A DNA stretch of 55,519 nucleotides, filler included, from Jimgerdemannia flammicorona (taxonomy: Eukaryota), in assembly GCA_003990765.1 (NCBI GenBank). It is 3 parts of 3 records of this genome, joined end to end, with 100 filler letters (N's around TTAATTAATTAA, not from the genome) between each part and the next. Parts side by side here need not be neighbours in the genome. Positions count along the whole stretch, not along the records: positions 1 to 18,452 come from RBNJ01002209.1; positions 18,553 to 36,987 come from RBNJ01002210.1; 1 more part is not named here. One strand, written 5' to 3'. Positions 1-41,597 of the stretch are shown in pieces (the first letter of the stretch is position 1; each line of letters opens with the position of its first letter). Below the pieces are notes generated by a model, which was given only the letters and a program-made list of their open reading frames with translations, searched no databases and was not told the DNA's origin. The position numbers and the translations under genes were made by a program.

Positions 1-431
1 TCACGCACCATATTGAAGTCACCCCCCAGACAGTCAATCCCAGCCACCCCCAAGACCCCTGCCTCGCACAAGTCCTTGATCCAGCCTATGCGCTCCCCTC
101 TCTCAGCTGGGCAATAGCACGACCCAACCATCAAAGCATTCCAACCAGGCCTCCTCCACACTCCCCATACCAGCCTACTCCCCCAATGTCCATCATCCCT
201 AATGTCCCCCATCCCTTTTCGAACCAGGATGCCCACCTGCCCTGTCCAAATAGCCGCCCCACCCCATTCCCGAGTCCAGTCCAGTAGGTCCACATCCGGC
301 TCATACCGCACATCCTGCAATAGGAAGAGATCTGCCTCCAGACCCTTCAACCAGCTAAAAATGTTTCTCCGCCATTTTGCCCCCCTTAGCCCATTGACGT
401 TCAAAGAAAAGATTCTAGTTGTACTGTTCAT
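1..431 (-). CDS. LINE ORF2 N-terminus, APE-type endonuclease (partial, open to window edge)
   Basis: ATG at 431 reads MNSTTRIFSLNVNGLRG...DLFLLQDV...SCYCP...CLGGDFNMVR, containing the APE motifs SxNVNG, Y-x-P and GDFN. Confidence 0.9.
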   Translation of the reverse strand, partial: MNSTTRIFSLNVNGLRGAKWRRNIFSWLKGLEADLFLLQDVRYEPDVDLLDWTREWGGAAIWTGQVGILVRKGMGDIRDDGHWGSRLVWGVWRRPGWNALMVGSCYCPAERGERIGWIKDLCEAGVLGVAGIDCLGGDFNMVR

Positions 432-461
432 ATTGAATAATGTTGGTAGGGATATCACAAC

Positions 462-2381: not shown

Positions 2382-2472
2382 GTTGATAGTAGCTTTTCAC
2401 CAAAAACTTCGCAGAAAGTGATGTCCAAATCTTGTGTCACCTGAATGTTACCGGTGAAAGGTGCAAAGGAGG

Positions 2473-5457: not shown

Positions 5458-5488
5458 ATTGAAGAAATGTTGAATTGACTACCCCAAC

Positions 5489-7435
5489 CTAGTACTCTAT
5501 GCTCATCTCATCTCCAGCCAGATCCAAGTGCCATTCCGCCTCCAAGTCACCCTCCACATTAGCCTGAGCATCCAGTGCCTCCAAGATTTCCTAGCATTCC
5601 ACCCCATCCACGATCTCTATATCTGACCGGTAGTCTAGGCAGACTGTGCACCACTTCTCCAGTCCCTTCCTCGAATTCTACAAGAAAAGTATCCTGTCGC
5701 TCACAATCTTCTGAAGCTCCTCCTCCTGCTGATCATCCACTTGATATTCAACAGATTCTAAGAGAACGGCTAGGATCTCATTCCTCATCTTCCTCGGCAC
5801 CTCCTCCCCTTGCAGAATCTCCTCCCAATGCCTCTCCTCCATCACCTGGAAGTCCCCACCCCCCAGCTCTTCCGCCGCCACCCCTTCTAGGGTCTTCCAC
5901 ATCCACTTTTCCTCATCCACTGCCTCTGCCGCACCCTGAGCGATATGTCCCCCATCCACCTCTGGGTCCATCAGTATGCTCCTCCTCACTGATTCATCCC
6001 ACTCCTCATCCCACTCCTTATCCAGCACATCCATCAGCTCCTCCTCCCCCTCAGCCCTACCCAGGACACTATACTGAGGGTGCACACCCTCACCCATTTC
6101 AGCATCTACCACCAACACACCTTCCTCCTCTACCCTCTCTCCAATCTGAGCCCCACCCTGGGCCATTTTACCCCCCTCAGCCCAAGTGCTCTCCTGCAAT
6201 CCTGTAACTCCTTCTTCTGAGCTTCCACCAGCCCTACCCCCACCCAGCCTCACCAGCAGCTCCTTCTGTATTTTCCTCCCCTGCATCTTCTCCCAAACCC
6301 CTTTCTCCATCCAGACCTTCTTCCCATCCACCTCCCCTACCACCGTCCTGGCCTCAAACTCCTTCCAGGCCAATCTCCTCCTTGCAACTGCCCCTTCCAG
6401 ATCCTCCAGTGCCTCTAACAGGTCCTCCTCCTCCTCCTGGGTCCCCTTCACCCTCGCGACCTTACACTCCACTGGTCCCTACCTCAGCATCGCTGGCTAG
6501 TCCCTCCACCTTCCCGTATTCTCCTTCCCAAACAGCCTCACCCTGATATCGACATCACCAGTCCTAAGCATGGTGCCCTCCCAGACCTTGAACCCAACAT
6601 CCACGATCTCACCATACTCCTTGATCACCTCCACAACCATCTCCCTTGTCCTCTCCTTCGACACAGTTGGGAGATCCAACACTATCAACTGCACCACCCG
6701 GGGGTCCCAGCGTATGCACCGGGCCATAGGAACCACAACCCCGCCAACCATCACCCCCTTTTCCATGGCTGCTAACAAGGCGTCTTTCTTCTCAAACCCC
6801 ACCTCAACCCCCTCCTTTCCCCTCAAAAACTTCACTGAGGCCGCTCCCTTAGCCTCTTGTGCCACTAACTCCAAAATCATCCTCACCATCACTACCAAGC
6901 CCCGGAAGCACATAGTGACTGCGAATTCTGACCTCGACTTCTTGAGTAATGGGGCCAACACTATGCCCGTCATGCCATCTGCCAGGTCCCCAGGCCTCAT
7001 GCCCCCTCCCAGTCCCGAATTGCCAACCACCATCATATCTGGATTTTTTGCCAGATCTCCAGTCACAGCCCCATTAGCAGTCACAGCCCCATCTTCAGCC
7101 CCTACTCTGGCTCCTACCCTACCACCAGAGGCTCCCCTGGGCACACCTCCCTGTCCTTCAGCAGCAGCCATCGAAGCCTTCCCCAGGCCCAGCCAACCAT
7201 CAAGCCCAGAAGCCATCTTCCCTATTCTGACCATGTCAGCAAAGGTCGACCTCTCCCCTCCTCTCTGCCTCAGACTGCCCCTCCCTCTACCGCTGGTACC
7301 TCTGCTTGCCCTCAAGGCCTCTGGCATCCCCAAACCATCACCCCTCCTCCCCACCTGCTGCCAGCCAAAGGCACTGTCACCCCCCTGGCCAGTATGCTCA
7401 CCAGTTCGATCAGTGCTGTCCATGTTGCTAGTCAT
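5489..7435 (-). pseudogene. LINE ORF1, copy 2
   Basis: ORFs 6497-7435 and 5678-6472 are collinear with copy-1 ORF1 and are broken by TGG->TAG stops. Confidence 0.88.
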
Positions 7436-7513
7436 CTGACACCAAAAATGTTGTAAAAAGTGTTGTCTGAGTCTTGTGTCACCTGAATGGTACTGGTAAA
7501 AGATGTATAAGAA

Positions 7514-12590: not shown

Positions 12591-14990
12591 AACTCAACTA
12601 TTTCAAACTCAATCTAATATTAATACTATTATTATATTTATTGACTGCCTAACCAAGATTATAATTACCAAATCAACTACTACCAATACTACTATACCTG
12701 AGATTGTAAGAATCTTCTTCAAGTCTATCTTCTATCACTATAGTCTACTATGAATAATTGTCAGCAATTATGACCCTAAGTTCACTAGTTACTTCTGATA
12801 AACTCTATTCAAGACTCTGGGAACCCAATTGGCTATATTCACTGCCTTTTATCTATAAACTAATAGACAAACTGAGTGTAGATCTCTCTATATCATTTAC
12901 TCCCCACAAAGTATTTCTCTTTCTATATTATTTTTCTTCACAAACTACCCTTCTTTTTATATTATTTATCTTTACAAAATATTCCTCTGCATCATTCAAC
13001 CTTACAAAGTATTCTTCCTTCTATATTGTTTACCTTCACAAGTAATTTAAGATCAGGTTCTTTATATCTATTAGGGGTTTTAGATGGAAGATGTGAAGGG
13101 GGGGTATGGGAGGGTGATGGGTAGGTGATGGAGAGTGTGGGGGTAGAGTTTGGGTTGGGGCATGGAGAGATAGTAGAAGGCATGGGAGTGGGAGTTAGAT
13201 TTGGGTATGGGAAGATAGTAGAAGACATAAAGATAAGATTTGAGTTGAAGTATAGAGAGGTGATGGATAGTATAGAGGAGAGGTTGGGTTCATGTTGGGG
13301 CATAGAGGAATAGTAGAAGACATAGGGGTAGTGATTGAGTTTGGGTGTAAAGAGGTAGTGGAAGGCATGAAGGTAAGGTTTAGGTGGTGGATGGTATAGA
13401 GAGAGGAGAGAGTGGGTTTGGGTTGGGGCATGGGGGAGTGGTAGAAGATATGGGAGTAGAGATCAGGTTCAGATGTGGGGAGATAGTGGAAGGCATGAAG
13501 GTAAGGTTTGGGTTGAGGCATAGAGAGGTGGTGGATGGTATTGTGGGTTTGGTTGGAGTATAGAGAGGTGGTAAAAGGGGGGTTGGGTTCAGATAATGGG
13601 AGGTATGAAGGTAAGATTTGGGTTAGAGCATAGGGAGGTAGTGGACAGTGTGGGAGGAGAGAGTGGATTTGGGTTGGGGTGTGGAAATGGGATTCAGGTC
13701 AGGGTATGGGGATGGAATTCAGGTTGAGACATGAAGAGGTGGTGGAAGGTGTGGGTGGGGTTCAGGTTGGAAATATAGGGAGGTGTGGAGTGGGGTTCAG
13801 TTTGGGTTGAGATATGGGGAGGTTGTAGAGAGCATAGGATGGAGTTTGGGTTCAGAAGGTCAGCAGAGATAAAAAGTACCAGAATGGGATAGGGTTGGTG
13901 AGTACTATAAAATACAGACAAACTGAGTATATGAATAGAACTTTAGAATAAATACTTAGAAACTACATTTCTTGTGAACATAATAATTAGAACTATTACT
14001 TAACTTATACAGAGTTTATATACAATAATGCTGTCCAATCATCTACTGGTCTTTTCTCCTTTTGGCTACTCTATAGCTAAGATTCTAATATCTCTATATA
14101 TAAGTCTATTATCTTTTAAGAAAAGTAGTCAAATATAAGTTTTTACTGCTAAGAACCTCATAGACAAAATAGATAAACTTCTCAAGATTACTACTATAAA
14201 TCTTCAGAAGGCTCAATAGTATTAAGCCAAATATAATGCTATAATATCATCTATACTATTAGAGATTAAGTTCTACTATCTACTGAGAACCTCAGAATAT
14301 AATCTTAAGTCAACTGTCTATCAAACAAATTCTAACTCAAGTATATTGAACTCTTTGAGATTATAGAACAAGTCTCTATATCCTCCTATTGTCTCAAGTT
14401 ACCTAAAACTATAAGAGTATATCCAGTCTTTCATGTATCATATCTTAAAATCTGAAATCAATTACCACCCTACTCTGGTTAAATTCTCAAGTCATCTATC
14501 CTTATAATTATCAAAGACCATATTGAGTATAAAGTTGAGAAAATTCTTAACAAGTGAATTTGCTACTATTGTCCTGAATATCTAATCAAATAGACTATTC
14601 TCAATATGATACTATCTAGAAACTACTGATCAATCTCAAAGACTCTCAAGACCTAGTTCAAGACTTCAAAGCAAAATATATTATCTAATACCTATAGTAA
14701 CTTTTTTAGATTATTAATAACCTATAGTAATAACCAGTGTCTTATGTATTGAAAGTTTACTTTGAGATCCCAGAATGAGCAGAATATCTAATGAATAAGA
14801 AGTCTACCAAAATGAAACTACTAGTTGAGTTCAAACTCCTCTCGGTCTGATAATAGGCTCTCTGCTCTATATGAAGATAGTCAGTTCTCACTAATATACT
14901 AATATAAGTTTGAGAAATTTTGGTTAAGTATAATTAGCTCTATATTACCTAAGAACTCAATAAGGATGTTAGTTCTTAAGAAGAGAGGAA
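12590..14990 (+). mobile_element. 3' half of a second Ty3/Gypsy element (chromovirus): integrase core + chromodomain + polypurine tract
   Basis: IIFIDCLTK, IVSNYDPKFTS, TNRQTE/[insert]/QTEYMNRTLE, YPVFHVS (~14420) and chromodomain EYKVEKIL...EYLIK (~14525-14590). PPT aagaagagaggaa at 14978-14990. Confidence 0.8.
12881..13915 (+). mobile_element. G-rich tandem-repeat insertion flanked by a target-site duplication (putative LINE-mobilised SINE-like element)
   Basis: Splits the integrase at QTE. agacaaactgagtRta occurs on both sides (12865-12880 and 13916-13931). The body is a degenerate ~40-bp G-rich repeat. Confidence 0.7.
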
Positions 14991-15190
14991 TATAATAATT
15001 TCACAGTTATATTTTAGTCTTAGTACTTTTTCACATCTTTTTATTAGGTTTTTCTTATCTTCTCTTACATATTCTACTATATTCTAGTACTTTTCAAATA
15101 CTTAGAAATCTTCTCTTAGTACTAAAACACCACTAGAACATTCTTGTCTTTTTTTTAGTATTAAGTATCTTATCTTAGCTAGTTATAGAA

Positions 15191-16415
15191 CCTTTTATTT
15201 TTATTTTTATTTTTATTTTTATTTTTATTTTTGTTTTATAGACTCAGAGTTCTGTAGATTTTATTGAAAGAAAACCTAGACTATATAGACCAAAACTCTC
15301 CTTTGCCACCTACTAGATATTACTCTCTTATTAATTTAGGCTACCAAATTGTCCTACAGTCTCACTATTTCCACTATATATATCAGATATGCCAACTCCC
15401 ACTATATAGACTAGACTTGTCTATTTATCAGAACTGGATCATCATAACTATATGTGAGAGCACATCTATACATTAGATCTAGCAATACTAGGACTAAATA
15501 AAGAATAACTCTCCAAACTCTAAACAAAGACCTGAGGTAAAGAAAAACCCCCAACTAGTCAACAGAAGATAGAATAGATTCAGAGCAGATAAGTAAAGAA
15601 CTTATATATAAGACCTCCTCAAAAGAATTAATATATAAACTAAGATTTGAAAAAGTCTCACTTCTACTCTCTGAGCCTATAGGTCTCAATTATATTGCTA
15701 TATTAGCTCCTGGTTCCAGTTAGATACTGTCAAATAAGAGAGGTCCCACTTCTCAAGCCTGTGGACCTCAATTATATTACTATATCAGCTCCTAGTTCTA
15801 GTTAGATATAGTTAGAATATTAGTTCCTACACTACTCTATTCTCTGTCAGCCAATTAAAAGGCCCTACTGAGATAATATCTATCTCAATCCCAATGACTG
15901 CTCTCAGCCTAGCACCCTACTAGTCTATCATTATTACCTTTCTGCCTATCTGTAATGGCCATCTCTTCTCTCATCTCAACTCCATCTGAAAAGCAGTCAC
16001 CTACACCAGAACTGTACTTGCCAAGAAGCTTACTAAAGCTCAGAGGGCCCTACTATAGGTACTGAGGACTTATAGATAATCTACACTAGTACTTAATATC
16101 TAAGGTCAGTTGATTTTATATACAGTCTGTAATATATCAGATAATATCTTATTGATAATAGCAAAAAGAAGAAAGTACTGCATCAAAACAAGTATACTCT
16201 AGATATAGTTGAAGATATCAAAAACTACAAAAAAAGAAAGAAGACACTGATCTGACACTAATAAAGGAGCAACTTATTATCATTATCTCCCTCTTATTAT
16301 ATCCTTACAGATACAGTAAACCAATCTGAGATAAAGAGATAATAATAAAGGAAAGGAGACTCAAAAGATTATCTACCAAACCTTATAACTAGTAAGATAG
16401 CAGAAAAAGGAGTTT
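15191..16415 (-). mobile_element. ~1.2-kb non-coding poly(A) retroposon (SINE-like), full-length hypermutated copy
   Basis: A-rich tail at 15193-15236 and AATAAA upstream of it. gttatagaa is duplicated at 15182-15190 and 16416-16424. Its 5' ~280 bp match the young copy at 36705-36987. Confidence 0.8.
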
Positions 16416-16434
16416 GTTATAGAATTCTATTAGT

Positions 16435-16802
16435 TTTTTTTTTATTTTTTTTTATTTTTATAATTACTCAGACTCTTTCTTTTATTAATATACCCATCTA
16501 TACATTATATAATACATTGTACCCACTCCTAACTAATCTCCCTAGGGCTCTCCTCTCTCCTCCCCCCACTCTCTCCTGATGAAAGACCACTTTATTATTC
16601 ACCATCTCTACCCACCCACTACTCTGTTCACATATCTCTTCTATCAGACAGTGATGTTACCCACCCTGGGGACCCCAACCAACCCACCATCCAGTCAGCA
16701 GATCTCCCATCAATCTCTCTCATCTTGACAACTTCTCTTGTATTTCCATCTATTGCTCCTTCTCAAAAACAAAGAGCCAATGTCCCACCAGCTCTATCTA
16801 TA
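16435..16802 (-). mobile_element. 5'-truncated LINE 3' fragment with poly(A) tail
   Basis: Perfect 16-bp TSD atagaattctattagt (16419-16434 and 16803-16818). AATAAA plus A tail. Purine-rich sense strand like the LINE copies. Confidence 0.8.
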
Positions 16803-17053
16803 ATAGAATTCTATTAGTCATCTTTGCTAAGAATCTATTTTTTAGTTTTTCTCTTCTTTTCTAAGATTCTTCCAGATCTTTCTTTCAGATTTTGTATAAA
16901 TATTCTTATTTTCTGCTTAAATAAAGCTTAGAATATTTTCTCTCAGAATTTCTTCAAGAATACTTAAACCTATAAGTATTTCTTAAGCTACTTTAGACTC
17001 ATCAGAACTATTAGTCTTAGCTACTTCCACTTAAAGAAACTAGAACTGTTATA

Positions 17054-17567
17054 GATAAATATATCTTTGAATAATATAGTAACTGATCTGACTAGTTTAC
17101 TTATCTTCTTAAAATATTTAGTTATAATATATCTTATCTGATAGTAAAAAAAATATACTTCTTACTTTTTTAGATATTTCTTCTCTCTTAAAATAAGTTT
17201 GATATTTTTTTTATTCATAAAGTCTAGATTTATTGAAACTAGTCTCACTATTTTAGACTAGTTTTTATGGTAGTTTTTGAAGTTATTATTTTTATAATAT
17301 TTTTATTCAATATAATAGCTATAGATAATGATATCAAATCAATTAGCAATTCTTATAGCTTCTTTAAGAAAGCTTGATTTTTCTAGCTCAATTTTGACTT
17401 ATGTATTTCTTTTAGACCTCAGATATAGTAGTTTATCTTCTCATCTTCTGTAATATTAGTTAGTTTTAAAAGAATTAGTAAGAATTATATATTATATATA
17501 ACTTTATATAGACTTGAGTTGTTTGATATTTACTAGTCTATCTTTAGCTAGTTTGATAGTATTAGCT
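17054..17567 (-). pseudogene. Extremely AT-shifted Ty3 gag fragment
   Basis: Its reverse complement aligns with gag at ~33640-34130 (e.g. acagaagatgagaagataaac vs actgaagacgagaaggtcaac). Confidence 0.7.
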
Positions 17568-18100
17568 AGTATTCTAAATGAGTTAATTCAATCTGAATTG
17601 AATTTAGATTAGATTTGAATTGAATTCTATTTAAATTAGCTTGGATAATTCAAATTGAACATTATTTTGATTTTCAAATTAGATAATTAAATATTTATAT
17701 TAATAACTCAATATATAATTATCTAATTTTAATAATTATAGTATTATTTTAAAATTCTTAATAAGGCCTTTCTAATGATACTAAGAATATTAAGGTAAAT
17801 ATCTAACTTACTGATTTTGAAAATTTCTTCAAAAGAATATTTTTCTTAATAGCTCAACAATATATAATCTAATTCTAATATTCTTGATATTATTAAAAAG
17901 ATCTTATTAAGGGCTTTTAAATGATACTATAATTATAATTATATATTAAGTTATTGATATAAATATTTAATTATCTAATTTGAAAATCAAAATAATATTT
18001 AATTTAAATTGATCTGGATCAGCTCATTTTTCATTTAAGCTGATCTAGATAAGTTTGAATCTAATTTGAATCTGATTTAGCTTAGTTCATTCAAAGTACT
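17568..18100. mobile_element. Foldback/MITE-like element with long inverted arms
   Basis: 17661-17790 is a near-perfect reverse complement of ~17878-17999. The termini agtattctaaatgagt / agttcattcaaagtact are inverted. A related partial copy lies at ~18860-19190. Confidence 0.7.
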
Positions 18101-18452
18101 AGATCTAATATACTATAGTAGTAATTATTTTTTCTAGATTAATCTATATATATCTCTATATCTATATCTTCTACTATAAAGAGATCTAAATAATCACTCG
18201 GACCAAACAGTTGGCTCTGCGTCTAAGCCACCAGAATGGTGAGCTTCTCAAGTTTTGGAGACCACAAATATAGGCTCCAAGGAGCGCCAACAGGTGTACC
18301 TCATCCCTTAGGTATAGGAGTCCCACCTGGTCTTTTCGGCGTAGCCATAGCTTCTAGTTTCAGCAAGTTACAAGGATTTCAAGAATTTCGGGGCAAGACG
18401 GGCAAAACGACACAGGCAAGATGGGCAAGACGGGCAACACGGGTAACACGGG

Positions 18453-18552
18453 NNNNNNNNNNNNNNNNNNNNNNNNNNNNNNNNNNNNNNNNNNNNTTAA
18501 TTAATTAANNNNNNNNNNNNNNNNNNNNNNNNNNNNNNNNNNNNNNNNNNNN
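18453..18552. other. Artificial scaffold gap linker
   Basis: N run, TTAATTAATTAA (stops in all six frames), N run. Confidence 0.97.
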
Positions 18553-18579
18553 AAAAAAAAAAAAAAAAGAGAGAAAAAA

Positions 18580-18800
18580 GTCCCCATCCACTTCACCTGT
18601 CTTTCTACCATACTGGTCTCAGTAGCTACTATAAAACTCTTAGAGAGGTCAAGGCCAGACCTCTTCCTCTCTAAGTACTTAGAGCTTGACAACTCTTAGC
18701 TTGCTATATTACCAAAACTTGATGAAATTTGACAAAACTTATTGTAACTTATAGCTAGACTTCTGCTACATCTAGTACACTAGTATTGGCAAAGTAAAAA
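18580..18800 (-). repeat. Decayed repeat homologous to 26295-26500 (+); possibly the 5' end of a second LINE family
   Basis: gatgtagcagaagtctagct...aagtacttagagaggaagaggtctgg aligns with aatatagcaaaagtctagct...aagtatttaaagagaaaaagatctag. Confidence 0.5.
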
Positions 18801-19577
18801 CTTGAAAATAGATTACTTTTTATAAAAAGATATCTATGTGGCTTAACTTATTCTGAGTGATTTAAGCAAAAGAAGTTTTCTTAAAGAGATCTTTCTGATG
18901 ATATCAAGAATGTTGAAATTAGATGATATATAGACAAGTTATTAATAGAAATATTTTTTAAAGAAATTTCCAAAATCAGCAAGTTGGATCATTTGTATCA
19001 TTTCTATAGCTATATAGTTAAATTGCTCAGCTATACTATCTGATTTTAATATTCTTGATATCATTAAAAAGATCATATTAAGGACATTCAAATAATACTA
19101 TAATCAATAAAATTAGATGATTTTTTATTAAGTTATTGATGTAAATATTTTATTATCTAATTTGGAAATCAAAACAATAATATTGACATATCAAATTTGT
19201 ATCACATAAGTTACTTAGTATAAATTTATAAATATAAAATAATTTTTATTTTTTTTAATATTTTTTTTATTAATAATATATTAGACTATTAAAAGTAAAA
19301 AAATATAAATAATAATATTTTATTATTCAATATAATTCTAATTTGAACTATATAAAATAATTATTATCTTATATTTTCAATTAAATCAGCATTAATAAAA
19401 ATAACTCAAACAATTAGTATTTTTCTATTAATATCAGAAATATGACAGTTGCATTCATTTATTGGTGTTGCATTTAGCGAAAGCACAAAAAAGAAACCAC
19501 AAAAAGACAAAAGAATGAAAGTGTATATAATGCACTAACAAGTTCAATTTACAAAGACAACACTCCTACAGCATTGA

Positions 19578-23731
<4,154 letters not shown>

Positions 23732-24101
23732 CGTTTGGTAAGTCTAGGTGATAGGTCCACGGATTAAAGGATGAGTCAACCGACAAGATAGAAAGCGTAA
23801 GGGCTACAGATGAGTGATGGAATGCCATACGAGTTTTGTGAGTGTGAAGGAGAGGGGGGGAGAGAGAGGTGAGTCACTCAGTGTCTGTGGCAAAGACCTT
23901 TTGTTTCGGAGTTCGGGAAAGACAAGACAAGGCACAGTCGAGTAGCCCAAATGCGTTATGTGTTTCACGGGTCCGCGTGACTGATGACGTCTTCAAATTT
24001 ACATTGTTGGTTACGTATATTAATCAATTCGGATAGCTACATTGTATAAATCATGATACGAAATGCCTAATACTATGTCGCATGATCGCAAAACGGCCCT
24101 G

Positions 24102-25615
24102 TTAGAACCATCTATTGTTTGGTAGAGGCAAGAGAAAAGGGGGGTATAACAACATCAATAACAAATTGACTGATAGTACATAAAACGAAAAGAACATTGC
24201 AAATAAAATACAAACGAGTTATCCTCCTGAATCACTGTGGTGTCGCCATATCCGTCAGTCTCTATGACTGAAATACAATACCCGATTTTGGTTGAGAAGT
24301 CATGGTGTGATATAATGTAGTTTACCTTCCCAAAATATTGAAATTATCTTACTCGTCGTTTCACCACCGAAACCCATGAAACCGGGATCATTCTCGATGA
24401 TAGTAGTGTCGCCATAGCGATCTGCAATATGTTGTTCCAAGAGCATCCTCATACTTAACAGTAGGTCTAAAAATAATACCAATTCAACAGTCAATTGCGT
24501 TGTGCATACCAGTTGTAATGATTTCAGTCTCTCTACCGAAACCCCAACCACGTTCCTCCTCGATTATCGTGGTTGTGTTGCCGTCGTAATCACCAACGTA
24601 TTCGGGTTCGATGACAGTGGTATGGCCACCATCATAAAACCTACCACCGCCGTGATTATGACCATGAGAGCCGTGACCAAACTGAGGCATAAGCAGATTA
24701 CATATATATCAGCCACATTTATGAAGAATCAACCAGACCCATCTGGCAGACTCAATATCAGAAAATAAACAAGTAAAAATCACGAATGCAGCAACCAACC
24801 CTTTCCTCGTCCTTTCTATGCTCAATAACTTCGCCAGCAATGAAACCTGCAAGGCCAGCAGCGGCAGCAGTCCCAGCAAGGGCCAACCCAGTATGTCCCG
24901 TTTTCTTGCCAGATTGTTGCTTTTGCGAAGGAGGCTGCGGAGCATATTGCAGTTGAGGTGGGGGTGCGTAGCCCTGAGGTGGGGGTGCGTAGCCCTGAGG
25001 TGGGGGTGCGTAGCCCTGAGGTGGGGGTGCGTAGCCCTGAGGTGGGGGCGCGTAGCCCTGAGGTGGGGGCGCGTAGCCCTGAGGTGGGGGTGCATAGCCC
25101 TGGGGTGGAGGATAATAACCACTTTGATGGGATTGTGAGGGAGCAGCGTAATAACCACGGGGGTCCTCCTTCAAATTGATGGGGATCATGTAGTGAATAA
25201 AAATTCTGCTTCCCAACAAAAAAAAAAACAATAGTAATAATGAAATCTTCTTACCCAAGTTGTAGTGCGAGTGTTATGGTCAATGACTGCGGGAATGTAA
25301 TTCGGCGTTAGATCTATCATTTTGCCGTAGGAGTTATTTTCGATCCAGGTACCAAGTCGTGACGCTTACAATAGTAGCGGCCATCCTGGGCTTGCTACAA
25401 GACGAAACGGGATGCGACGGACGGACATGAGCAAAATTCACAGTACAGCGTACAATATTTTGAGATGACAATCTCGAGGGGAATTCTCCCTTACTTTGGC
25501 TTCCCAACCTGGATGAGTTGAAAACATGCAAGAAATGAGACTGTCATGAAACGATAGCCATTTGGAAACGAAGAAATAAAACGAAGCACATACCCTGCGG
25601 CAAAGGAGCAGACAT
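24102..25615 (-). CDS. WW-domain, Pro/Gln/Tyr- and Gly/His-rich protein (Wwm1-like), multi-exon
   Basis: Spliced N-terminus MSAPLPQG/WEAK/QAQDGRYYF/IDHNTRTTTW/EDPR is a WW domain. It is followed by (PPPQGYA)n, GLALAGTAAAAGLAG, a His/Gly patch and DxYGDTTII repeats. Predicted end DNSWF*. Confidence 0.8.
24954..25108 (-). repeat. Coding 21-bp tandem repeat, about 7 units (PPPQGYA)
   Basis: Repeated tgaggtgggggYgcgtagccc on the + strand. Confidence 0.95.
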
Positions 25616-26659
25616 TCCAAATAGTTTGTGAGTGTGATGAGAGAAAAAGCAAGGTCAGTGTGTAGAGGGCATGATAGTAATTTTAAATAACTAGGTCACC
25701 AGTGATGATGACGCAACACCCTAGATTGTGAATTATACACCTGGTATTCTTAGTTTTAAAATTCTGGGCCAAATGTGATGAATCAGAGGTCCGCAAATTT
25801 GCTGATGAGGAAAAATTAGTCACTTCCATTTAGAAAATATGGAACCCCATTCTTTGTATAATAACTAAGTGTTATTTTATTTTATTTTATTTTTATTTAT
25901 TAATAAATAGTATAATTACTATATTAATAATATTATTTGATAATCTTATCTAATTAATTTACTAATTTTTATAATATAGACATAGATATATAATTAATAA
26001 TAATAATAACTGGAAGAACTCTATTCTATTTTCAAACTCTAGTCATATTATTTAAATAACTTTTAGTTTACTTAAGTATTTATAATAATACTTATTACTT
26101 CAAGATTATTCTTAGATATATTAGATAATAAGATATTACTTAGAGACTTAATATATAATATATTAAGAGGTCTTTCAATTGTTCTTTCTCTTAGTTACAA
26201 AGTTGAGAAAGTATAGTAAGAACTTCTTTTGTTTAAACTATTTAAAAGAGTTAAGCTATATATATCTTTTAATAAAAAGTAATATATTTAATAGTTTTTA
26301 CTTTATAACTGCTAATGTGTAAAATATAGCAAAAGTCTAGCTTTAGTTTGCAATAATCTTTATTAAAATCTGATAAATTTTAGTAAAATAATAAGCTAAA
26401 ACTCAATAGGCTTTAAGTATTTAAAGAGAAAAAGATCTAGTTTAGAGTTACTCAAGAGCTTTGTAATAATAGCTAGATCTAAAGGTACTAGAAGAAGTAA
26501 AGAAAGACAGAAGAGAGCTACTAAAGTAAAGAGATGATATACTATAGTAGAGAGCAGAAAAGCTACTACTAGATCTATAGTAATAGGATAAAAGAGATAT
26601 AATATTAATAGAAGAGAGAGTCAGATAACTAGTTAGATAACTAATAGAAATTAGAAGTA

Positions 26660-29600
26660 GGTACCTTTCTTCAGTACAATTCATGTTACACCAACTTCAA
26701 GCAACAGTTTTTCAATACAACTCAGAGAAAAGGTATTATAATGATGTCATCAAGCAAGAGTTCTGCTAGGTGTGCTAGATCAGATGGACCTGGGGCTTTT
26801 GGCTGGCAGTATGTAGAGAGGGGTTATGGCCTGGGGATGGGGGCCTTTGGAGGATTGAAGAGTGGCAGGGACTCTGGAGGTGGACTGGTGTCTGGTAGTC
26901 ATGGAGAGAGGTCTGGCCCCCCAAGTTTTGTAGATAAGATGAAGGAGAGTAGGTGGTCAGCTGAGACTAGGGCTAGTATGGCAGTAGGAAAGAGTAAGGT
27001 AAGCCTAGGGAGGGGGGGAGTTGCTCAGGGGGAGAATGCAAGCATAGGTACTAGAGGTGTGATGGCTGAGGATGGGACTGCTGATGGTAGTATAATGGAC
27101 AATCAGGAAAAAAAAAGAGATATGATGGCTGATGGCAGTATGGGGCAGGGGTTCCTGATGTGGAAGGGAGACCTGGCCAATGGTATGACAGGGCTGGTGG
27201 TGGCACTATTACTCAGGAAGTCAATCTCAGAGTTTGTAGTGACGCTGTGCTTCCAAGGCTTGGTGGTAATAGCAAGGATGGTCTTGGGGCTTGTCTTGAA
27301 GCAGGTGACTAGAGCTGTCTCAGTGAAGTTCCTGAAGGGTCTAAAGGGAGTAGAGGTGGGCTTTGAGGAGGTAGGCTTACTGAAAGAGGTGCTGAAGTCT
27401 AGAGTAGTAGTTAGTGAGGTAGTAGTCTCCATGATATGCTATCTGAGGTGGGACCCCAGGGTGGTGCAGCTGCTGGTGAAGGGGGTGCCTACTGTGATGA
27501 AGGAGGAGACTAGGAGGAGAGTAGAGAAGATGATGGCAGAGTATGGCAATGTAGTGGATATCGAGTTCCAGGTATGGGAGGAGACCTCTATTAGGACTGG
27601 TGATATGGAGGTGAAGATTAGACTGACAGGAAGGGAGGCCACAGAGAAGATGAGTGACTGGCCCTCAGTGTTGATTTGGGGGACTTTTGTCTGTAAGGTG
27701 TCAAGGGTACAAGAGAATGAAGAGGAGGAAGAGGACTTATTGGAGGCACTGGAAGAGTTGAGTAGTACTATTGAGAGGAGGGCAAAGGCCTGGAAGTTGT
27801 ATGAGGAGTCAATACATTTGGAGATTGTTGATGGGAAGAGGATTTAAACTGACAAAGGGCAGTAGGAGCATACCCAGGGGCACAAGCAGTAGAGAGAGTT
27901 GTTTGTGAGTATGAGCAGTAGGACTAAGAAGAAGGCAGATGGGGCTGAGGTATCTGGGGGTATTGAAGCCAGTGTCTGGGCCAGTAAAGATGAAGGGGAG
28001 GTAGAGGCAGGCAAGAAAGAAGCTGGGAAGGTGCTGAGCAAGAACTCCTATACTGACAGTACATTCAAGGTCTGGGAGCAGGAATTGGATACCACTCCCC
28101 CCCCTCTTATCAGAAGGGACCTGGCTGTAAAGAGAGGGATAACAGAGGATGTACTGATGCAGGAGGCCCAGCAAGTGCACTTTGGGGTCCCTGATGTGGC
28201 AAAAGGGGGCCAGGTGGTGGCAGTTGGTGAGGACAAGCTGGTGGATATCTCTGAGAAGGAGTAGGATGAGGCTACCAGTGTAGGAGCTGATACCACAATG
28301 TTAAATGTAGGGCAGCCAGAGACTCTGGGAGAGAAGGAGGTGGGGAACTTGTTGTGGATGAGTAAGATGATAGATTACCTCATAGCAGATACATTGGGAG
28401 AAGTGGACCTGCAGGTAATGCCTGAGGAGTATTGGGCATAGATTCTGTATGGTGATAGAGTGGTGGAGGCACTGAAGACAGAAATTCTTGCAATTTTCCT
28501 AGAGGAGGAGGGATATGAGATTGATGAGGTAAGGAAGGCAGAGCTGGTGGTGGTTGCTGATGAGCAGGCAGCCTACTGTTGGGTGGAGCATCATAGTTTG
28601 CAGCTCTGGTAAGAGGCCTGTCTGGAGTATCATGAGGACTTTGAGGAGCAAGAAGATGGGGTGATGATAGAACTTCTGGGAGGGTTGGAGGCACAGGAGG
28701 CTGGAGAAAGGGAACTAGCTGCTGAATATGACTTGGACTTGGTGCAGGAGGAGCCAAATGTGGACTTGTAGAGGATGGGATTATGTATGATATATCATTA
28801 TTTCTTATGAATAGTACAACCAACATTTTCTCTTTGAATGTGAATGGGTTAAGGGGATCTGGGCAGCATAAGAACATTTTTACTTGGCTCAAGGGATTGG
28901 AGGCTGATCTCTTTTTACTATAGGATATTCAGTGTGAGGATGAAGACAATCAGGTGGAGTGGACTAGGGAATGGGGTGGGGCTACTGCTTGGTTTGGAAA
29001 AGTAGCAATTCTGGTGAGGAAGGATAGAGAAGACTTGGGGGGAATCAGAAGCTAGAGTGATCACTTGGTCTGGAGAGATTGGCATCAGCCAGGGTGGGAG
29101 TTGGTGAAGGTTGGTTCTTGCTACTACTCCACAGTTAGGGGTGAGAGGACTGCATGGATTCAGGAGCTGCTGGAGGAGAGTATTCTCTTAGAGGAAGAGG
29201 TTGATGTTCTTAGTAGGGACTTTAATATGGTTCAGGATCAGCATCTAGACAGAACTGATGGAGAGAGGAGTGTAGGGGGGAGAAGTGGAGGTCTGGATGC
29301 TTGGGAGGAGGTGGAGAAGTTGAGCTCCTTAGGAGATATAGGCAGAACACAGTGGGGCAATACCAGGGTCTATATATATTAGATGAATGGCTTGGGTACA
29401 AGGATTGACTGGATTCTGACAGCAGAGTGCTGGGGTTCCAATATTTGAAAGGTGCTAGAGATGGAGTGGTGCTCATGGTCTGATCACTAGAGACTGTTGG
29501 GACAGAGGCAGTTTGGGGGGAGTAGAGATAGACCCAGATATTAGCACCTTAACTCCTCCCTGCTGGCTGAGAAGGGGTTGTGAGACTCATAGGTAGAGGA

Positions 29601-29711
29601 CATTCAGGTGAAGGTTTCTGTCTAGAGGTATGAGGATTTGTCTGTGGGTGTCCATTGGATGAGATTGAAAGAGGCTACAAGGGTCTATTGGAGAGAGGCT
29701 GGTAGAAAAGC
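26660..29711 (+). mobile_element. L1/Tx1-like LINE, copy 3 (diverged, decayed): ORF1 from 26741, ORF2 endonuclease from 28807, cut at 29711
   Basis: ORF 26741-27847 is homologous to ORF1. ORF2 reads MNSTTNIFSLNVNGLRG...LLL*DI...SRDFN...RIDWIL...WSDH. Confidence 0.88.
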
Positions 29712-32637
29712 TGTAAGCACACAACCTCCAAGCCACTGAAATCACATGTCACCCTCTGAACAAGCCACCAAAATCACATGCGACCTCTGAACAAATCTGG
29801 AAATCACCTGCTTGATCACAAAGCTGAGTCAAACCGAAGTCACAGCACATAAAGCTGAGTCAATATGAAGTCATGGAATACAAGACTTATACAAATAGAA
29901 TCTTACCAATCAGGACCAAATGCATATATACCGAGTACCAAAATGCATCAAAACAGAGAACCAAAACAAACAACAACCACAACTTCTGAACACACATAAA
30001 TATGACCACTGAGATCAATAACTGCATCTGTGCTGATATTTGGAATGTTATTGTCAACCAAGCCACACTCCCTCTATCCTTCATGAATATCTATAGCCTA
30101 GCACCCCTCTATTTTATAGAAGCTCAATGGAATGCCCTGAATATGCTTAATGAGGCCCACTGAATCAGACAAATCTCAAGCTATTACCAGATCAGCCACC
30201 TCCTAGAAGTCATGGTCGAACACCACTACAATACAGACATTACCCAGATATCTCAACACCAGAAACTTATTGCCTGCAAATACCAAGAACTCTTTTATGA
30301 ATACAGTACCTTTATTCTCTACCTCTGAGTTATCACTAGTGAAATGGTTACTACTCTTTCCTATGGCAAAATTGACAATATGATACAAGAACTCAACCAC
30401 AAGTACCTTGAGTATGTCCAGACCACAGACAGAATCTTTCTATACCCCACTGACTACATCCTGCAAATGCCCCAAGTTAGATATACTATGAAGAATATCT
30501 ACGATATAATCTGGTTCAATGAAGATGAAGCAGAAGACAACAATCCCTCTGACACCAACATGACCTCAAGCCAAGGATCTCTGCCAACTCTGATTATACC
30601 ACTAACCTTGCTAATGAACTTATAACAGTTCATAACTACTAGCATGAATACTAATCTGCATTCACCCTTGATTACTTCAACTATAATAAAGAGACTGGAG
30701 AATACAATCTGTACCTTCAGACAACCCTTAAGATCGAACCAACTACTCCACCACCTGAGTACGAGTGACATGAACCACAGCTACTAGCTTACTACAACCC
30801 TGTGACTCATAGTGCTATAATCTATAGAAGGTATACAGATAGTGAAACTAATAAAAGTGAAGATGATGCACCACTCCTTTGCCCACCAACACCTTATCCA
30901 GCATACAAGACAGACAATGTAATTCTGTAGGATAGTAATGAAGTTTCAATGTATTATTATCTTAGCGAATAAAGAGAAGTAATCTACGAACTACTCTTCC
31001 TAGATAACTACTTCATCAGAAATGATGTCATCGATAGTAATATCATTGAAGACTACCCAGACAGCATCTAAACCTATAAATAGCTTAGCAGTTATAGTAT
31101 AGTTATATTAACCTTATATAATGTGACTATGAACTGACTTAGCAGTCAGATGATCTCTTAATATATCAGATCATACTTATACTATGTGACTGTATTGTGA
31201 CTCAGCAAGGCACTTAGTGCTACATCCATATCTAGCATAGTTCAGATAGCCCCTCACTAGTATAAATATCCCCTCTCCCAGACCTCAGAATCTCAGACAA
31301 AAACAGACTTGAACAATCTGAACACAACTCCTGAGCACTTCCCCACAATATCCCTTCACACAACTACTTCTAGTATAGCAATATTATGAATAGCAAATAA
31401 ATCTATTTAATAACCCACAAACCACTCTTAAGTAAATCTACTCCCCATTAGGTCCCACTCCTAACCCTATTACAAAATTTCCTAATTGGGTATTGTCTGC
31501 AGCAATATGCCGATTCAACTAAGCTGGTCTTAGTTTCTTGATCTTTCTGAAATATGGAAACTCCTGAACATCCAGAACTAGTCCAGAAATGGACTTTAGT
31601 TGAGACATCAAACTGAACTTGAAATCAATAAGCATAGAGGATATATTCCATATGAAATTGGTCTTGACCTTAAGAAAATGGTCTTCCAGAATATTCTGAA
31701 CTTCCAGAAAATCCTTCCAGAACTATATAATAGTTATCTTAAAAAGAAACCCTCTTATAACTTAGTAGCAGTAGTTTACAATCCAATTCTGCTTCAAGAT
31801 GCTTCCTCATCTTGTTACAAACCCTTCTGAGAATTCCTACAAGTTGGTATAAAGCCCAACCTCTGAACTGGAATTTATCCTGAACTATCTGATAATCTGG
31901 AGAGAATTGAACCTGACATATAAGGACAATTTGACCTCCACATCTGTAACAAGTAGGACAAACTTCATTCAAAAAAAGAAGTACTCTGATTAAATCAGCA
32001 AATAGATGAAACTCTATTCATCAAACTCCTTGCTCTATACCCAGCAAGTCAAGATGAAGAAGGTCTTATTGAAGCCTTCTTTACTCTTCTCAACAAGAGT
32101 TTTGTTAGCTCTACAAATCCAAGTAATCTAGGACAACCAGCAGCCATCTTTCTAGCCTTAGTCTCTCATAAAGCCCAAGCCTCTGTAGCCAAGTGGCTCA
32201 ACTCTACCAACTTTCACCATACTAGGACCAAGACTACATTATACTACTGATTCCAGAACAACAAGGCCCATCATATTCTTAAAGAAGAAGCAAGAGAAAC
32301 CCTTCATCAACTACCTGATCCCAAATCAGAAGCAGGCTCTACTATAGCCCTATCTGAACCTAGAACCAATACTGAATTAGAACTTAACTTTGAATTAAGT
32401 CTATCTGAAATCAGATATATAACTGATTCTGTCTACTTTGATGCTGAGCAAACCCAATTACACAAGGATCAAACTGAAGAGAAGGAGGAGTATCTCAGTG
32501 AATTCAATCCCAGATATACCACCGAAGGAGATGCACCTCCATCAGGCCAGAACACACCTACACAACAATAAATAGTTATCTATCAAGCCCTCACTCTGGA
32601 CCTACAACTATTACTCCAGCAACTTACACAGACTCAA
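29712..32637 (+). mobile_element. Putative LTR element: long LTR-like region (TG at 29712 ... TTACA at 31474) followed by decayed gag-like sequence
   Basis: Abruptly truncates LINE copy 3 at tgtaagc. Short internal repeats at 29725-29880, TATAAATA at 31261, AATAAA at ~31397. Downstream sequence is CpG-poor and coding-like, with no diagnostic motif. Confidence 0.45.
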
Positions 32638-33057
32638 AGAACACCCTCACACTTTGCAATATTTTAGTATAGTTTATTTCTTTTCTCTGTCTTTCTTGAA
32701 TATTCTATAACCTTCTGGCACTTTCCATGTACTTAGAAATCCTTTTTTGGCACTAAGCATTAACTAGTACTTATTTAGCTAGTCACTGATTGTTCTGGAA
32801 ACTTATAGAACTTTATTTGTCATCATTTGTCATCTTTGCTGAGAACTTTCCTCTTGGCATTTTCCTTTGATTTCTCAGATCCTTCCAGATCCTTCTTTCA
32901 GATCTTATATAAATATTCCCTTTGTTCTCATGAATAAAGTCTCAGAATATTTTCTCTCAGAAATCTTTTGAGAACACTTAAATCCTTAGTATCTCTTCAA
33001 GCTACTTAGGACCACCAGAACTAGTTGCTTTCTCATTTAGAAACTAGAACCATTACA
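32638..33057 (+). repeat. 5' LTR of the dUTPase-carrying Ty3/Gypsy element
   Basis: Ends in TTACA. Followed by the PBS-like tggcagcagtgg (33060-33071). Contains a TATA box and AATAAA. Homologous to the LTR at 14991-17053. Left boundary approximate. Confidence 0.75.
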
Positions 33058-33125
33058 CTTGGCAGCAGTGGTTAAGTTACACCTGGCCTTATTAAGAAAC
33101 CTCTCAAGATATTAGTCACAACACT

Positions 33126-36100
33126 ATGGAGGATAATGGGTGGAATTCTTCATACAGTACCTATAGTCCAGACAATGTCTCTTACTATCAGTAAGAAGAA
33201 GAGAAACAGCAAAACCCTACTCAGTCAAATGGGGCCATCAAGAGTCTTTTGTAGACTGCACTAGCTCAGATTGCTCAACTTCAAGAAAACATAGAAAGAA
33301 AGGAAAGCAAGACCTCTGCTCATACCTTCATACCTCTACTGATATCAATATACCTGACAGCAGTCACTATCAAGCCTCAGAAGCCCAATACCTTTGATGG
33401 TCAAAGAGGAGGACTGTCTACTGATATCTGGCTTTTCCAATTAGAGCAATATGGAGAACTAACAAATTTGGAAGAAGCAACACTAATCCAATTCGCTGCC
33501 ACACTCCTCCAAGGAAATGCTGCAATCTGGTGGCGAAATTATGTCTAGAATACTAGATTCTCTGACCAAATCAAGACCTGGGGCAAATTCTCTGATGCTA
33601 TTCAAGGCCAATTCAAACTGGTCAACAGCACTAAGGCCACATGAGACCATCTGGCAAATGTCAAACAACTCAAGTCTGTATAAGTATATAATGTACAATT
33701 TCTGTCAATCCTGCTAAAATTACTACATGTCACTGAAGACGAGAAGGTCAACAAGTACATCCGAGGCCTGAAAGGTCAAACCCAAGTTCATGTTGAACTA
33801 GAAGAACTCAAGGACCTAGATATAGCAATGAAAATTGCTGATAGGTTTGATGTCATCACTTATGGTTACTGCTTTGAACAGAAGAGACTGCCTTTCAATA
33901 ACAACAACAACCACAAAAGAGAGGAACCCAAAGTCAGAACTGTTGGACCTGTCCCCATGGACCTAGACACTATCGACAAGAGCAAGAAAGGCAAGCTTAC
34001 ACCTAAGGAAAAAGAGTGCCTCAAGAAGGCTGGAGTCTGCTTCTTTTGCCATCAGTCTGGTTACATTGTAACCAAATGTCCCAAGAAAACTGCTGAACCA
34101 AAGAGGATCCTGGTCCTATCCAAAGACACTCAAGGTCAATCAGTTGAATAAGAAGTTATACTCAATTTCATATGAGTCAACCCCAAGGCCCAGATCCCTC
34201 AAGCATAGTCAGAAGGAACCATTGGTTTGGACCTTCAAGCAGTATAACAAGTCACTATTCCAGCACATGAAAGAAGGCTCATTCCAACTGGCCTTTCAGT
34301 CAAAATCCCCAAGGAGCATTATGCAAGAATTGTACTAAGATCTGGTCTCAGTTTCAAGTACTCATTGGATGTGGGTGCTGGAGTCATTGATTCTGACTTC
34401 TGAGGTGAAATGTAAGTCCTGCTAGTCAACTATAAGAACCAACCATATACTGTCAATGAAGGAGACAGAATTGCACAGCTCATTCTAGAGTGAGCTGCCC
34501 TATCAGTTATCAAAGAAGTCACCAAGCTATCTTCAACCAAGTGAGATCAGAAAGGCTTTGGCAGTACTGACAAAGTTGCAAGCATAGCTGAGAACTGAGC
34601 CAATTCAATACTCATCTTCAAAGGTCTAGTCAAGAGACAAGAGCTAGATGTTCTCATAGACAGTGGAGCTGTTGGGAACTTCATCAACAAGAATCTCATT
34701 GATAAGCTCAAGATTCTCACAAAACTAGTTGGCAAGAATAGTGGAGTTGTCACTACAGATAGTACCACCTTATCAATTGACTCAATTGCTGCTAAACTTC
34801 CCCTCAAGATCCAGAAGTACTGAGAACATTTAGATTTTGAGGTAGTACCACTAGGAGACCATGACCTGATCCTAGGCAAACCCTGGCTTACACAGCACAA
34901 CCCTCAGATTAATTGGACCAAGAATGAAGTTACCTTGATTCAGAATGGAGCCAATATTACCATCAAGCCAGACAAGACTCAGACAAGAACCCCAATTGTG
35001 ATCCTTTCAGCAATTCAGTTCAAGAAGGCCCTCAAGAAAGCTATCTGTATCTTTGTGGCACTGATCTGACCAAAAAAAGAAGACAAGAAGCTATCCATTA
35101 GTGAAAGCATCAAATTACTGCTGAATAAGTACAAGGATGTCTTCCCAAACAAACTACCTGGTCTACTATCTTCAAGAGACCATGACCACAAAATCAAGTT
35201 GATACCTGATGCAGCTATACCTAAGAAGAAAATATACTGCATGTCTCTACTAGAAATTGAAGCAGTCAAGAAGAAACTCAATGAACTCATCAAGCGAGAA
35301 GCCATTCAGCCAAACAAGTCACCCTTTGGCTCCCCAGTCCTATTTGTCAAGAAAAAGGATGATACTCTGCGAATGTGCATAGACTACTGAGTACTCAACA
35401 AGATCACAGTCAAGAACCATTACCCACTACTGCTCATAGATCAAATCTTTGATGCTCTCAAAAATGCAAAGTACTTCACCAAGATTGATCTCACCTCTGG
35501 GTATCACCAAATTCGAATCAAGCCAGAAGATATACCCAAGACTGCCTTCATGACACTCTTCAGACTCTATGAATTCCTAGTTATGGCCTTTGGTCTCACC
35601 AACACAACAGCAATCTTTCAAGATCTCATACAAACTATCTTTAAGGACCAGCTCTATATCTTTGTACTTGTATACATTGACAATATCCTGATCTTCAGTA
35701 GCACTAAAGAAGAATACCTCAAGCATATTGAATAAGTCCTCAAGATCCTCTGTGAGAACAAGCTCTATGTAAAACTCAAGAAATGTGAATTTTTTAAGGA
35801 TCAAGTTGAATACCTTGGACACATTGTATCAGCCAAGGAAATTCAAGTAGATCTAAGGAAAATACAAGCCATTGAACAGTAGCCTGTACCAGCAAACCTC
35901 ACTGAACTCAGATCCTTTCTTGGTCTGGCTGGATACTACTATCAATTTGTCAAGAACTTCTCTGGTATTACAGAATCTTTGACAAACCTCCTGTGAAAGG
36001 AACTCAACTCTGACCTCTATGTCTCCTACATCTGAGATGCTTTCTGTCAACAAGCTTTTCAAGAACTCAAGAACTGCCTGACCCATGCACCTGTCCTTAG

Positions 36101-36704
36101 AAACATAGACCCAAACTTGAAGTTCACAGTTACTATAGATGCATCTAACTTTGCCATTGGTGCAGTCATTTCTCAAGATGATGGTCAAGGACACCAACCT
36201 ATTGCCTTTGAGTCAAGAAAATCGTCCCCAGCAGAACAAAAGCTGGCTACTCATGAAAAGGAACTCCTAGCAATTATGCATACCCTCAAGACCTGGCAAT
36301 ACTATCTAGAAGGAGTTGAGTTTAACATGATCACTGATCACAGGTCCCTTCAGTATATCAACACTCTACTAACCCTTTCTTGTCAACAAGCTAAGTGGAG
36401 TCAACTACTTCAGACCTTCACCCCAAATATCATCTATAAGCCTGGCAAAACTCTGGTTATACCAGATATACTTTTAAGAAGACCTGACCTTGCGGTAATT
36501 TTACAAGTCACCATGGCATCTGAATTCCTCAATCAGATCAAGAAGGCATATGAACAAGACTCTCTGGTTCTACAAAGGAATACCAAGGAATTCAAGAAAA
36601 AGTACACCATCAAGGATAACCTCATATACTATCAAGATAAAGTATATATTCCTGCCAACCCTGAACTATAGTATAAGATTCTTCATGAACATCATAACTC
36701 CCCA
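33126..36704 (+). pseudogene. Ty3/Gypsy gag-dUTPase-protease-RT-RNase H-(integrase start) polyprotein with in-frame nonsense mutations
   Basis: Gag KPNTFDG..LLQGNAAIWW, PMDLD and knuckle CFFCHQSGYIVTKC. dUTPase. Protease LIDSGAVGNFI. RT LRMCIDY, IDLTSGYHQI, VYIDNILIFS. RNase H IDASNFAIGAV, EKELLAI, ITDHRSL. Integrase ILHEHHNSP. Start position approximate. Confidence 0.92.
34152..34571 (+). pseudogene. Trimeric dUTPase domain within the retrotransposon polyprotein
   Basis: All five motifs in frame: IGLDL, RSGL, GAGVIDSDF*GE, GDRIAQL, *DQKGFGST (* = TGA at Arg positions). Confidence 0.92.
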
Positions 36705-36987
36705 GCTCCTTTCTCCGCTACCTTACCGGTCACAAGGTTTGGTAGGCGACCTTCCGAGTCCCCTTTCCCCTATTATTACCCCCTCTACCTCGGGTTGGTT
36801 TGCTGTGCCTGCAGGGGCATGGTGGGAGGAGGGCAATGGTGATGAGTTGCCCCTTTATCGGTGTCGGATCGGTGCTTCCTCCACTTTTTCGCGGATTCTG
36901 GTGCCTTCAGCTGCGTCTGGGGTGTACCCGTTTTGGTGCGGTGCCTTCTTCCTTTTGCCGTCGCCAACAAGGTGTTGTCTCGGTGTG
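36705..36987 (+). mobile_element. 5' end of a young, CpG-rich copy of the 1.2-kb SINE-like retroposon, inserted in the Ty3 integrase and cut by the gap
   Basis: Collinear with the reverse complement of ~16135-16415. Differences are almost all C->T/G->A in the old copy. Confidence 0.85.
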
Positions 36988-41536: not shown

Positions 41537-41597
41537 ACTTGAAGTTGTTTTGAAGAGTGGGCTTTGTTTGATACCTGGCCCTTTAAGTTGGGATAAG

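Follow-up and report, generated by a model that had tools for sequence, protein, structure and literature searches.

In trypanosomatids, NARTc, an element without an open reading frame (ORF), has its first bases in common with the long interspersed nuclear element (LINE) L1Tc, in which they are reported to form an internal promoter for RNA polymerase II (Pol II) that initiates at +1 (PMC1874656). A hepatitis delta virus (HDV)-like ribozyme has been described within the same trypanosomatid 77 nt (PMC3185411, PMC3383444). In the parts of the survey we draw on, the only clades given for ORF-less non-autonomous LINE derivatives are RTE, Ingi, Vingi, and R2, with sampling bias left open, and the bipartite ORF-less LINEs are described as retaining the 5′ end of the LINE and as probable Pol II transcripts (PMC5786205). 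HAL1 of the L1 clade and TRE5-A.2 of Dictyostelium are reported to keep the LINE 5′ end and to be moved in trans by ORF2p (PMC5786205, PMC3159450). Relaxed L1s are reported to copy RNAs in trans via poly(A) priming (PMC3747384). In Blumeria, Eg-R1 and BG_Non-LTR (eight elements) are described with >3000 copies, no A/B boxes, internal T runs, AAUAAA, and target-site duplications (TSDs); they are read as Pol II-transcribed, and their members are conserved in the 5′ 100 nt (bioRxiv 10.1101/242271). Here we analyzed a stretch of 55,519 nt from Jimgerdemannia flammicorona (GCA_003990765.1), called the window below, which is scaffolded DNA dense in retroelements nested in one another, and searched the genome of 231 Mb in 35,354 contigs. 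Our main subject is a non-coding retroposon, called the passenger, that begins like the L1/Tx1-group LINEs of the same genome. The best explanation overall, to which we give a probability of about 0.72, is that the passenger is an ORF-less family with a captured LINE-head promoter and would be copied in trans by ORF2p via its poly(A).

A sequence-only reading of the window had proposed a set of unrelated passengers with the 5′ head and the 3′ tail of a LINE, made up of a young copy at 36705, a 1.2-kb element, and a G-rich insert. All strings quoted in that reading were found where it placed them. The 36705 copy and the 1.2-kb element, supposed to be unrelated, align to each other at 71%. The young copy is 98.9% identical to the full copy L017 and 89% identical to subtype II, and the old copy at 15193-16415 aligns end to end with the subtype II copy L254 at 70%. 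Since the 36705 copy belongs to subtype I and the 1.2-kb element to subtype II, both inserts are one family. In L017, 1.17 kb in length, AATAAA is followed by 20 more bases and poly(A), and the TSD measures 15 bp. The 5′ start GCTCCTTTC was identical in all of the 30 best genome matches. The first look at the genome gave 3253 candidates by the 5′ end and 2556 by the 3′ end, and the exact head motif had 1653 matches versus 21 for a reversed control. A degenerate head pattern had 0 matches in metagenome contigs. Among 90 head-motif sites examined, 67 were the passenger family, 23 were LINEs, and none was a third family. By extrapolation there are therefore ~1,200 passenger copies with the unmutated motif, and passengers outnumber LINEs by about 3:1 among intact heads.

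Most passenger copies run through to the head. Fetching by the 3′ end gave 30 loci, of which 18 extend as far as the head, six are truncated, and six are ended by a contig edge (18 of 24 assessable). Three of the six 5′-truncated copies (L189, L190, L216) break at 771-774 of 1172, and this shared break is possibly a reverse-transcription stop or a second start. Poly(A) and an exact 12-18-bp TSD were found in 14 of the 29 full copies with both flanks. The two subtypes are 87-88% alike in the first ~580 nt and in the last ~140 nt; between these parts they differ except for a 70-100-nt unit that occurs once or twice. The subtypes would have exchanged or rebuilt the 3′ part of the middle.

The passenger body has no recognizable coding origin in the searches made. 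Comparison by tblastn gave no coding match (best E 0.25), and blastn against 17 LINE loci matched only the head and one flank. The body as decayed LINE coding sequence, a possibility raised against the sequence-only reading by its own author, was rejected on these results. No ORF1 remnant was found in the passenger. The longest ATG ORF has 95 aa and no Pfam match, is open in 11/22 and 1/3 copies, and differs by eight amino-acid changes between the subtype consensuses; it gave no sign of coding selection, with subtype II drawn from three copies only. A classical short interspersed nuclear element (SINE) with a tRNA, 5S, or 7SL head was also rejected. No tRNA (ARAGORN) or Rfam family was found in the passenger, and Rfam searches of the passenger head, the full passenger, and the LINE head returned only sub-threshold small nucleolar RNA, microRNA, and long non-coding RNA matches. 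Loose A-box-like words occur at one mismatch without a proper B box, in agreement with the earlier observation that no tRNA boxes are evident. The passenger also holds eight runs of at least four T, and such runs would stop RNA polymerase III. Dispersed copies with fixed ends, poly(A) with variable TSDs, and the lack of a mobilising ORF are the features of a non-autonomous retroposon without long terminal repeats. Judged by its anatomy, the passenger is one non-autonomous ORF-less poly(A) retroposon family of ~1.17 kb with two subtypes.

The link to the LINEs lies in the head. Aligned in register from base 1 (CCTTTC), the passenger and the family-A LINE are identical at 28 of 37 bases. This match scores 35, and none of 2000 dinucleotide shuffles reaches the score, their maximum being 25. 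Shuffles were as good in 2/2000 cases for family B and in 14/2000 for the decayed LINE copy 2 of the window. A hidden Markov model (HMM) of 39 LINE heads gave the passenger head 8.1 bits, with 0/500 shuffles as high; for the decayed old passenger copy, 169/500 were as high. An alignment of 11 passenger and LINE heads has 20 invariant columns. The head sharing noticed earlier thus stands for the 36705 element, but the alignment then drawn through ACCGGT was wrong. Likewise, 'ctcctttg' (2464-2471), which had been taken as the start of the LINE head, is junction or flank and occurs in 0 of 28 other family-A loci with upstream sequence. The family-A head, derived from 30 loci, is CACCTTTCACCGGTAACATTCAGG and begins at window position 2463, and families B, B1, C, and others have close variants of the form CA-CCTTTC(A/T)CCGGTA. 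The CA dinucleotide precedes the head in 19/67 passengers and 10/23 LINEs. In passenger and LINE copies alike, the TSD is separated from the head by extra bases that vary and often end in CA.

The head is conserved in its letters, not in structure, across LINE families. Hairpins had been suggested for the heads, with HDV-like ribozymes as a model to check; single folds were not significant (z −1.5 to +0.2), RNAalifold over 11 heads gave 0 consensus pairs, and no Rfam ribozyme was found in the heads at E up to 10, though diverged ribozymes can escape Rfam. Conserved letters without structure, an exact 5′ end, and mostly full-length copies fit a DNA promoter element. Borrowing of the LINE internal promoter, as proposed from the sequence, is the most likely reason for the head homology, and we infer the promoter function itself. 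The passenger head probably derives from L1/Tx1-group LINE heads and probably serves as a promoter.

The LINEs were assigned to the L1/Tx1 group from ORF layout, domains, and closest relatives rather than from a tree. Near-complete genome copies encode an ORF1 of 639 aa and an ORF2 of ~1,200 aa with an APE endonuclease, a reverse transcriptase (RT), and a C-terminal CCHC motif. The solved structure closest to ORF2 is human L1 ORF2p (E 4e-36), with R2 at only 1e-13. Named database relatives of ORF2 are mostly fungal and otherwise plant, one is called Tx1, and zf-RVT (PF13966) is frequent among them. ORF1 matched only unnamed clusters in the ESM Atlas, with RRM and zf-CCHC leads all <0.9. The LINE families are ~65-80% alike over the 5′ 1.1-1.5 kb, and their tails read AATAAAGG..AGTCC(A/G)AGTGACTATAAAA, followed by poly(A). 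From this consensus, the 'TGAGT' of the sequence-only reading is a decayed CGAGT or CAAGT. The LINE 3′ fragment of the window is genuine, with ORF2 upstream at the matching genome loci and an exact 15-bp TSD (16419-16433 / 16803-16817); the LINE-tail HMM scores it at 51 bits, with the fragment's own tail possibly in the training set. In one LINE-A copy (L233 / L322, G000:C54), base ~700 is joined to the last part of ORF2 by a ~4.9-kb internal deletion. A bipartite family was rejected for this copy, as its junction is present once in the genome. Passengers and LINEs are nested into each other in both directions (L236, L140, L225, L229, L251), and both were therefore active over the same period.

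Decay of the repeats bears on the earlier comparison, because the ends compared there were decayed. Repeat copies range in identity from 99% down to 70%, and the decay of old repeats, including those at 7500-18000, is nearly all C>T/G>A and extends beyond CpG. Between the old passenger copy and L254, 263 of 319 substitutions are C>T or G>A. The decayed fraction of sites in 15193-16415, measured against one other copy, is 0.65 for CG, 0.52 for CA, 0.38 for CC, and 0.22 for CT. The pattern may reflect a process like repeat-induced point mutation, or broad cytosine methylation.

The G-rich insert is a different kind of element. Its 22 candidate homologues continue past the insert on both sides, and nine unspliced ones carry a 242-321-nt GT..AG segment (GC..AG in one) at the junction, exactly the segment that the insert has lost. 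The insert start, previously taken as a decayed head, resembles the passenger and LINE heads no better than 1524-1854 of 2000 shuffles (363/500 with the HMM) and is the decayed interior of a repeat. At its end, less decayed homologues read GGCGGGCGCTATAAAATACAG, followed by further repeat, and have no AATAAA, TGAGT, or poly(A) at that position; the 'TGAGT' tail once ascribed to the insert is a product of C>T/G>A decay. The insert ends at an internal TATAAAATAC without poly(A), which suggests internal priming. The source family (L078:320-1900, L063-L087) has ~20 dispersed copies. Upstream, it has TGACGT palindromes and a run of T; a C-rich repeat exon follows, then a GT..AG intron built of short repeats, and finally ~700 nt of G-rich repeats and an AATAAA. 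No long ORF is evident in the source family, which is apparently transcribed and spliced. The genome has the spliced junction at two places, and the copy other than the insert has a different 5′ start and lies inside a LINE ORF1. In the best reading, the insert is not a passenger member but the retrocopy of a spliced RNA, with priming at an A-rich site inside it. The weaker alternative is that both junction copies go back to a single deletion in DNA at an AG microhomology. Read as retrocopies, these spliced sequences, which lack a LINE tail, show that the LINE machinery copies RNAs without one. All three TSDs reported earlier were recovered, that of the G-rich insert at 15/16 positions and those of the LINE 3′ fragment and the 1.2-kb element exactly at 15 and 9 bp.

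The 3′ end is where other explanations have to be weighed. The passenger could be a bipartite element whose head and tail both came from one LINE family, unsampled or extinct, with stringent 3′ recognition. Passenger and LINE tails have in common AATAAA ~20-26 nt before poly(A) and a GAGTCC/GTCC word, and both can form a 4-5-bp hairpin directly before poly(A). The tails of LINE families A and B are strongly conserved (over 40, 60, and 120 nt, 0/1000 shuffles as good), which suggests that the tail matters to the LINE. Over the same lengths, however, passenger and LINE tails match no better than 97-762 of 1000 shuffles, and an HMM from 31 LINE ends gave the two subtypes only 1.8 and 2.3 bits (matched or exceeded in 80 and 69 of 500 shuffles). 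The common 3′ tail, and with it the LINE recognition signal of the sequence-only reading, did not hold up in these tests. A genome pattern of the passenger terminal hairpin with another upstream base had three matches, all in passenger copies, so that a different element with the passenger's tail was rejected as well. The existence of spliced retrocopies without a LINE tail also speaks against stringent recognition. Structural recognition of the hairpin may play a part, but among the L1/Tx1 families sampled the passenger tail does not appear LINE-derived beyond AATAAA and poly(A), and we consider a bipartite origin improbable.

Still less probable is that several passenger families, unrelated to each other and with the G-rich insert among them, share the LINE head and tail. 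The different 3′ middles of the two subtypes could be taken that way. However, the G-rich insert comes from the interior of another repeat and is spliced, and not one of the 90 exact head-motif sites (90 of 1653 examined, decayed heads being missed) leads into a third body; the 10 that break off either pass into different repeats or DNA left unclassified, or bear an internal deletion. The likeness of the heads might also be chance, or convergence on a host core-promoter motif, with the passenger arising from a cellular non-coding RNA without LINE ancestry. Its body without LINE similarity and the head identity of only 76% would suit such an origin, to which we give the least credit of all, because the two elements match colinearly over 37-50 nt beginning at their 5′ ends, CA included, and each of the 90 motif sites inspected is the head of a retroposon and none is a gene promoter. 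Of the LINE-end-derived non-autonomous family proposed from the sequence, what remains is a high-copy ORF-less element with a LINE-derived head; the LINE-like 3′ end, the set, and the membership of the G-rich insert fall away. A lack of LINE-end similarity, which that reading had named as counter-evidence, was found at the 3′ end, whereas the 5′ end is similar. Single-copy status, named likewise, nearly describes the G-rich insert (two spliced junctions with different 5′ starts) and not the high-copy passenger.

In the trans-copying explanation that we favor, the first ~50 nt of the passenger would descend from the 5′ end of two-ORF L1/Tx1-group LINEs. This head would act as an internal Pol II promoter with the start at base 1, as in the LINE, and every full-length copy would thereby carry its own promoter. 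The RNA would be polyadenylated at its own AATAAA, as the anatomy suggests, and LINE ORF2p would copy it in trans by target-primed reverse transcription; the footprints of that process are seen in the copies, and the enzyme is presumed. Recognition would act mainly through poly(A), not a LINE-derived tail. The spliced retrocopy of the G-rich repeat and the truncated fragment of a LINE may be products of the same relaxed machinery. We also suggest, tentatively and as a possibility we find rather doubtful, an 'inverted SINE' in the L1/Tx1 group, that is, a foreign non-coding RNA that captured only the ~50-nt LINE Pol II promoter and kept its own 3′ end.

Several points weigh against the trans-copying explanation. 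The hairpin possible in both tails is one of them. Another is that no exact TSD was found by script in 15 of the 29 full copies, several of which look decayed by eye. The closest sampled LINE head is only 76% like the passenger head, and the donor LINE family was for that reason not found; a search for a nearer head gave nine matches, all L1/Tx1 families and none nearer. Parts of the element are present in six sequencing runs of four studies, and the four runs inspected are contigs, silent on start, strand, and transcription. Another LINE clade of the genome, outside the L1/Tx1 families sampled, could be the real mobiliser.

Table 1. Retroposon features of the window, with positions counted along the whole stretch.
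Feature	Position	Strand	Remarks
Passenger subtype I, 5′ part of young copy	36703..36987	+	CA+GCT+CCTTTC head; assembly gap ends copy; inside decayed Gypsy-type pol region
LINE-homologous passenger head, ~50 nt	36703..36755	+	Putative internal Pol II promoter
Passenger subtype II, old full-length copy	15193..16415	-	C>T/G>A-decayed; AATAAA and A-rich tail
5′ TSD of old passenger copy	16416..16424	-	Partner 15182-15190
3′ TSD of old passenger copy	15182..15190	-	Partner 16416-16424; 9 bp exact
L1/Tx1-group LINE 3′ fragment, 5′-truncated	16434..16802	-	ORF2 end, 3′ untranslated region, poly(A)
Spliced retrocopy (best reading), internal part of dispersed low-complexity repeat	12881..13915	+	Exon junction 13042/13043; no poly(A)
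5′ TSD of spliced retrocopy	12865..12880	+	Partner 13916-13931; 15/16 match
3′ TSD of spliced retrocopy	13916..13931	+	Partner 12865-12880
LINE copy 1 (family A)	1..2463	-	Head at 2463, ORF1, ORF2 start; sits in ORF2 of LINE copy 2
LINE copy 2 (related family)	2470..7505	-	Head, ORF1, decayed ORF2 with endonuclease and RT
LINE copy 3 (family B)	26662..29700	+	Head, ORF1, ORF2 start

Other features of the window lie beside these retroposons. The region 33100-36700 (+) is what we take to be a decayed Gypsy-type element with a dUTPase-like segment at ~34180-34580, between gag and protease, judged by eye from its motifs. A multi-exon gene at 19700-23740 (-) is presumably cullin-like, again by its motifs, and a small gene at 24170-25600 adjoins it, with a 21-nt tandem repeat at 24954-25111. 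The ORF at 40091-41602 (-) has a BTB domain and a weak SPRY domain, and that at 47712-49634 (-) has OST-HTH/LOTUS and WH_Egal domains. The segments 37236-38394 and 39683-40892 are a duplicate pair (87%). Decayed AT-rich inverted repeats at 17647-18010, 18623-19179, and 26221-26475 are probably remnants of DNA transposons or miniature inverted-repeat transposable elements.

A high-copy ORF-less element with a probable L1/Tx1-derived head bears on the clade-sampling question that the survey, in the part cited here, leaves open (PMC5786205). In our literature search, with Repbase Reports and most subscription journals outside it, no report of such an element was found. Pol II 'SINE-like' families that have a head in common, Blumeria Eg-R1 among them, may have originated in the way proposed for the passenger, and the 20 invariant head positions are direct targets for promoter assays. 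If more insert families with the same head exist, the head would be a portable promoter module that repeatedly founds passenger families. If the promoter reading is true, aligning passenger and LINE heads would show, at the level of single bases, where the core promoter of fungal L1/Tx1 elements lies.

Among known systems, the G-rich insert resembles the processed retrocopies described for relaxed L1s in its removed GT..AG intron, TSD, and 5′ truncation (PMC3747384), and differs from them in lacking poly(A) and in having a low-complexity repeat family, not a known gene, as its source. HAL1 and TRE5-A.2, as described, keep ORF1, and TRE5-A also requires a 3′ C-module, unlike the passenger with no ORF1 remnant. 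Bipartite ORF-less LINEs are described as internal deletions with both ends kept, whereas the passenger keeps the head only; it has the 5′ homology of these elements but neither the 3′ homology nor an internal-deletion origin. As in the accounts of NARTc with L1Tc and of RIME with ingi (Pr77), an ORF-less partner here shares the first bases of the LINE. Unlike NARTc and RIME, it goes with a two-ORF L1/Tx1-group LINE, its head likeness is 76% over 37 nt, no ribozyme was found in the head, there is no common LINE 3′ end, and the 1.1-kb body has no detectable LINE ancestry. The passenger's closest resemblance, by description, is to Eg-R1 of Blumeria and the seven elements related to it, with their conserved 5′ ends. 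Eg-R1 differs in being ~670 bp long, in encoding a peptide, and in having genomic copies that are said to lack poly(A). In the cited part of the Blumeria work, no LINE origin is traced for the shared head (bioRxiv 10.1101/242271), whereas the passenger head probably goes back to the L1/Tx1-group LINEs of its own genome.

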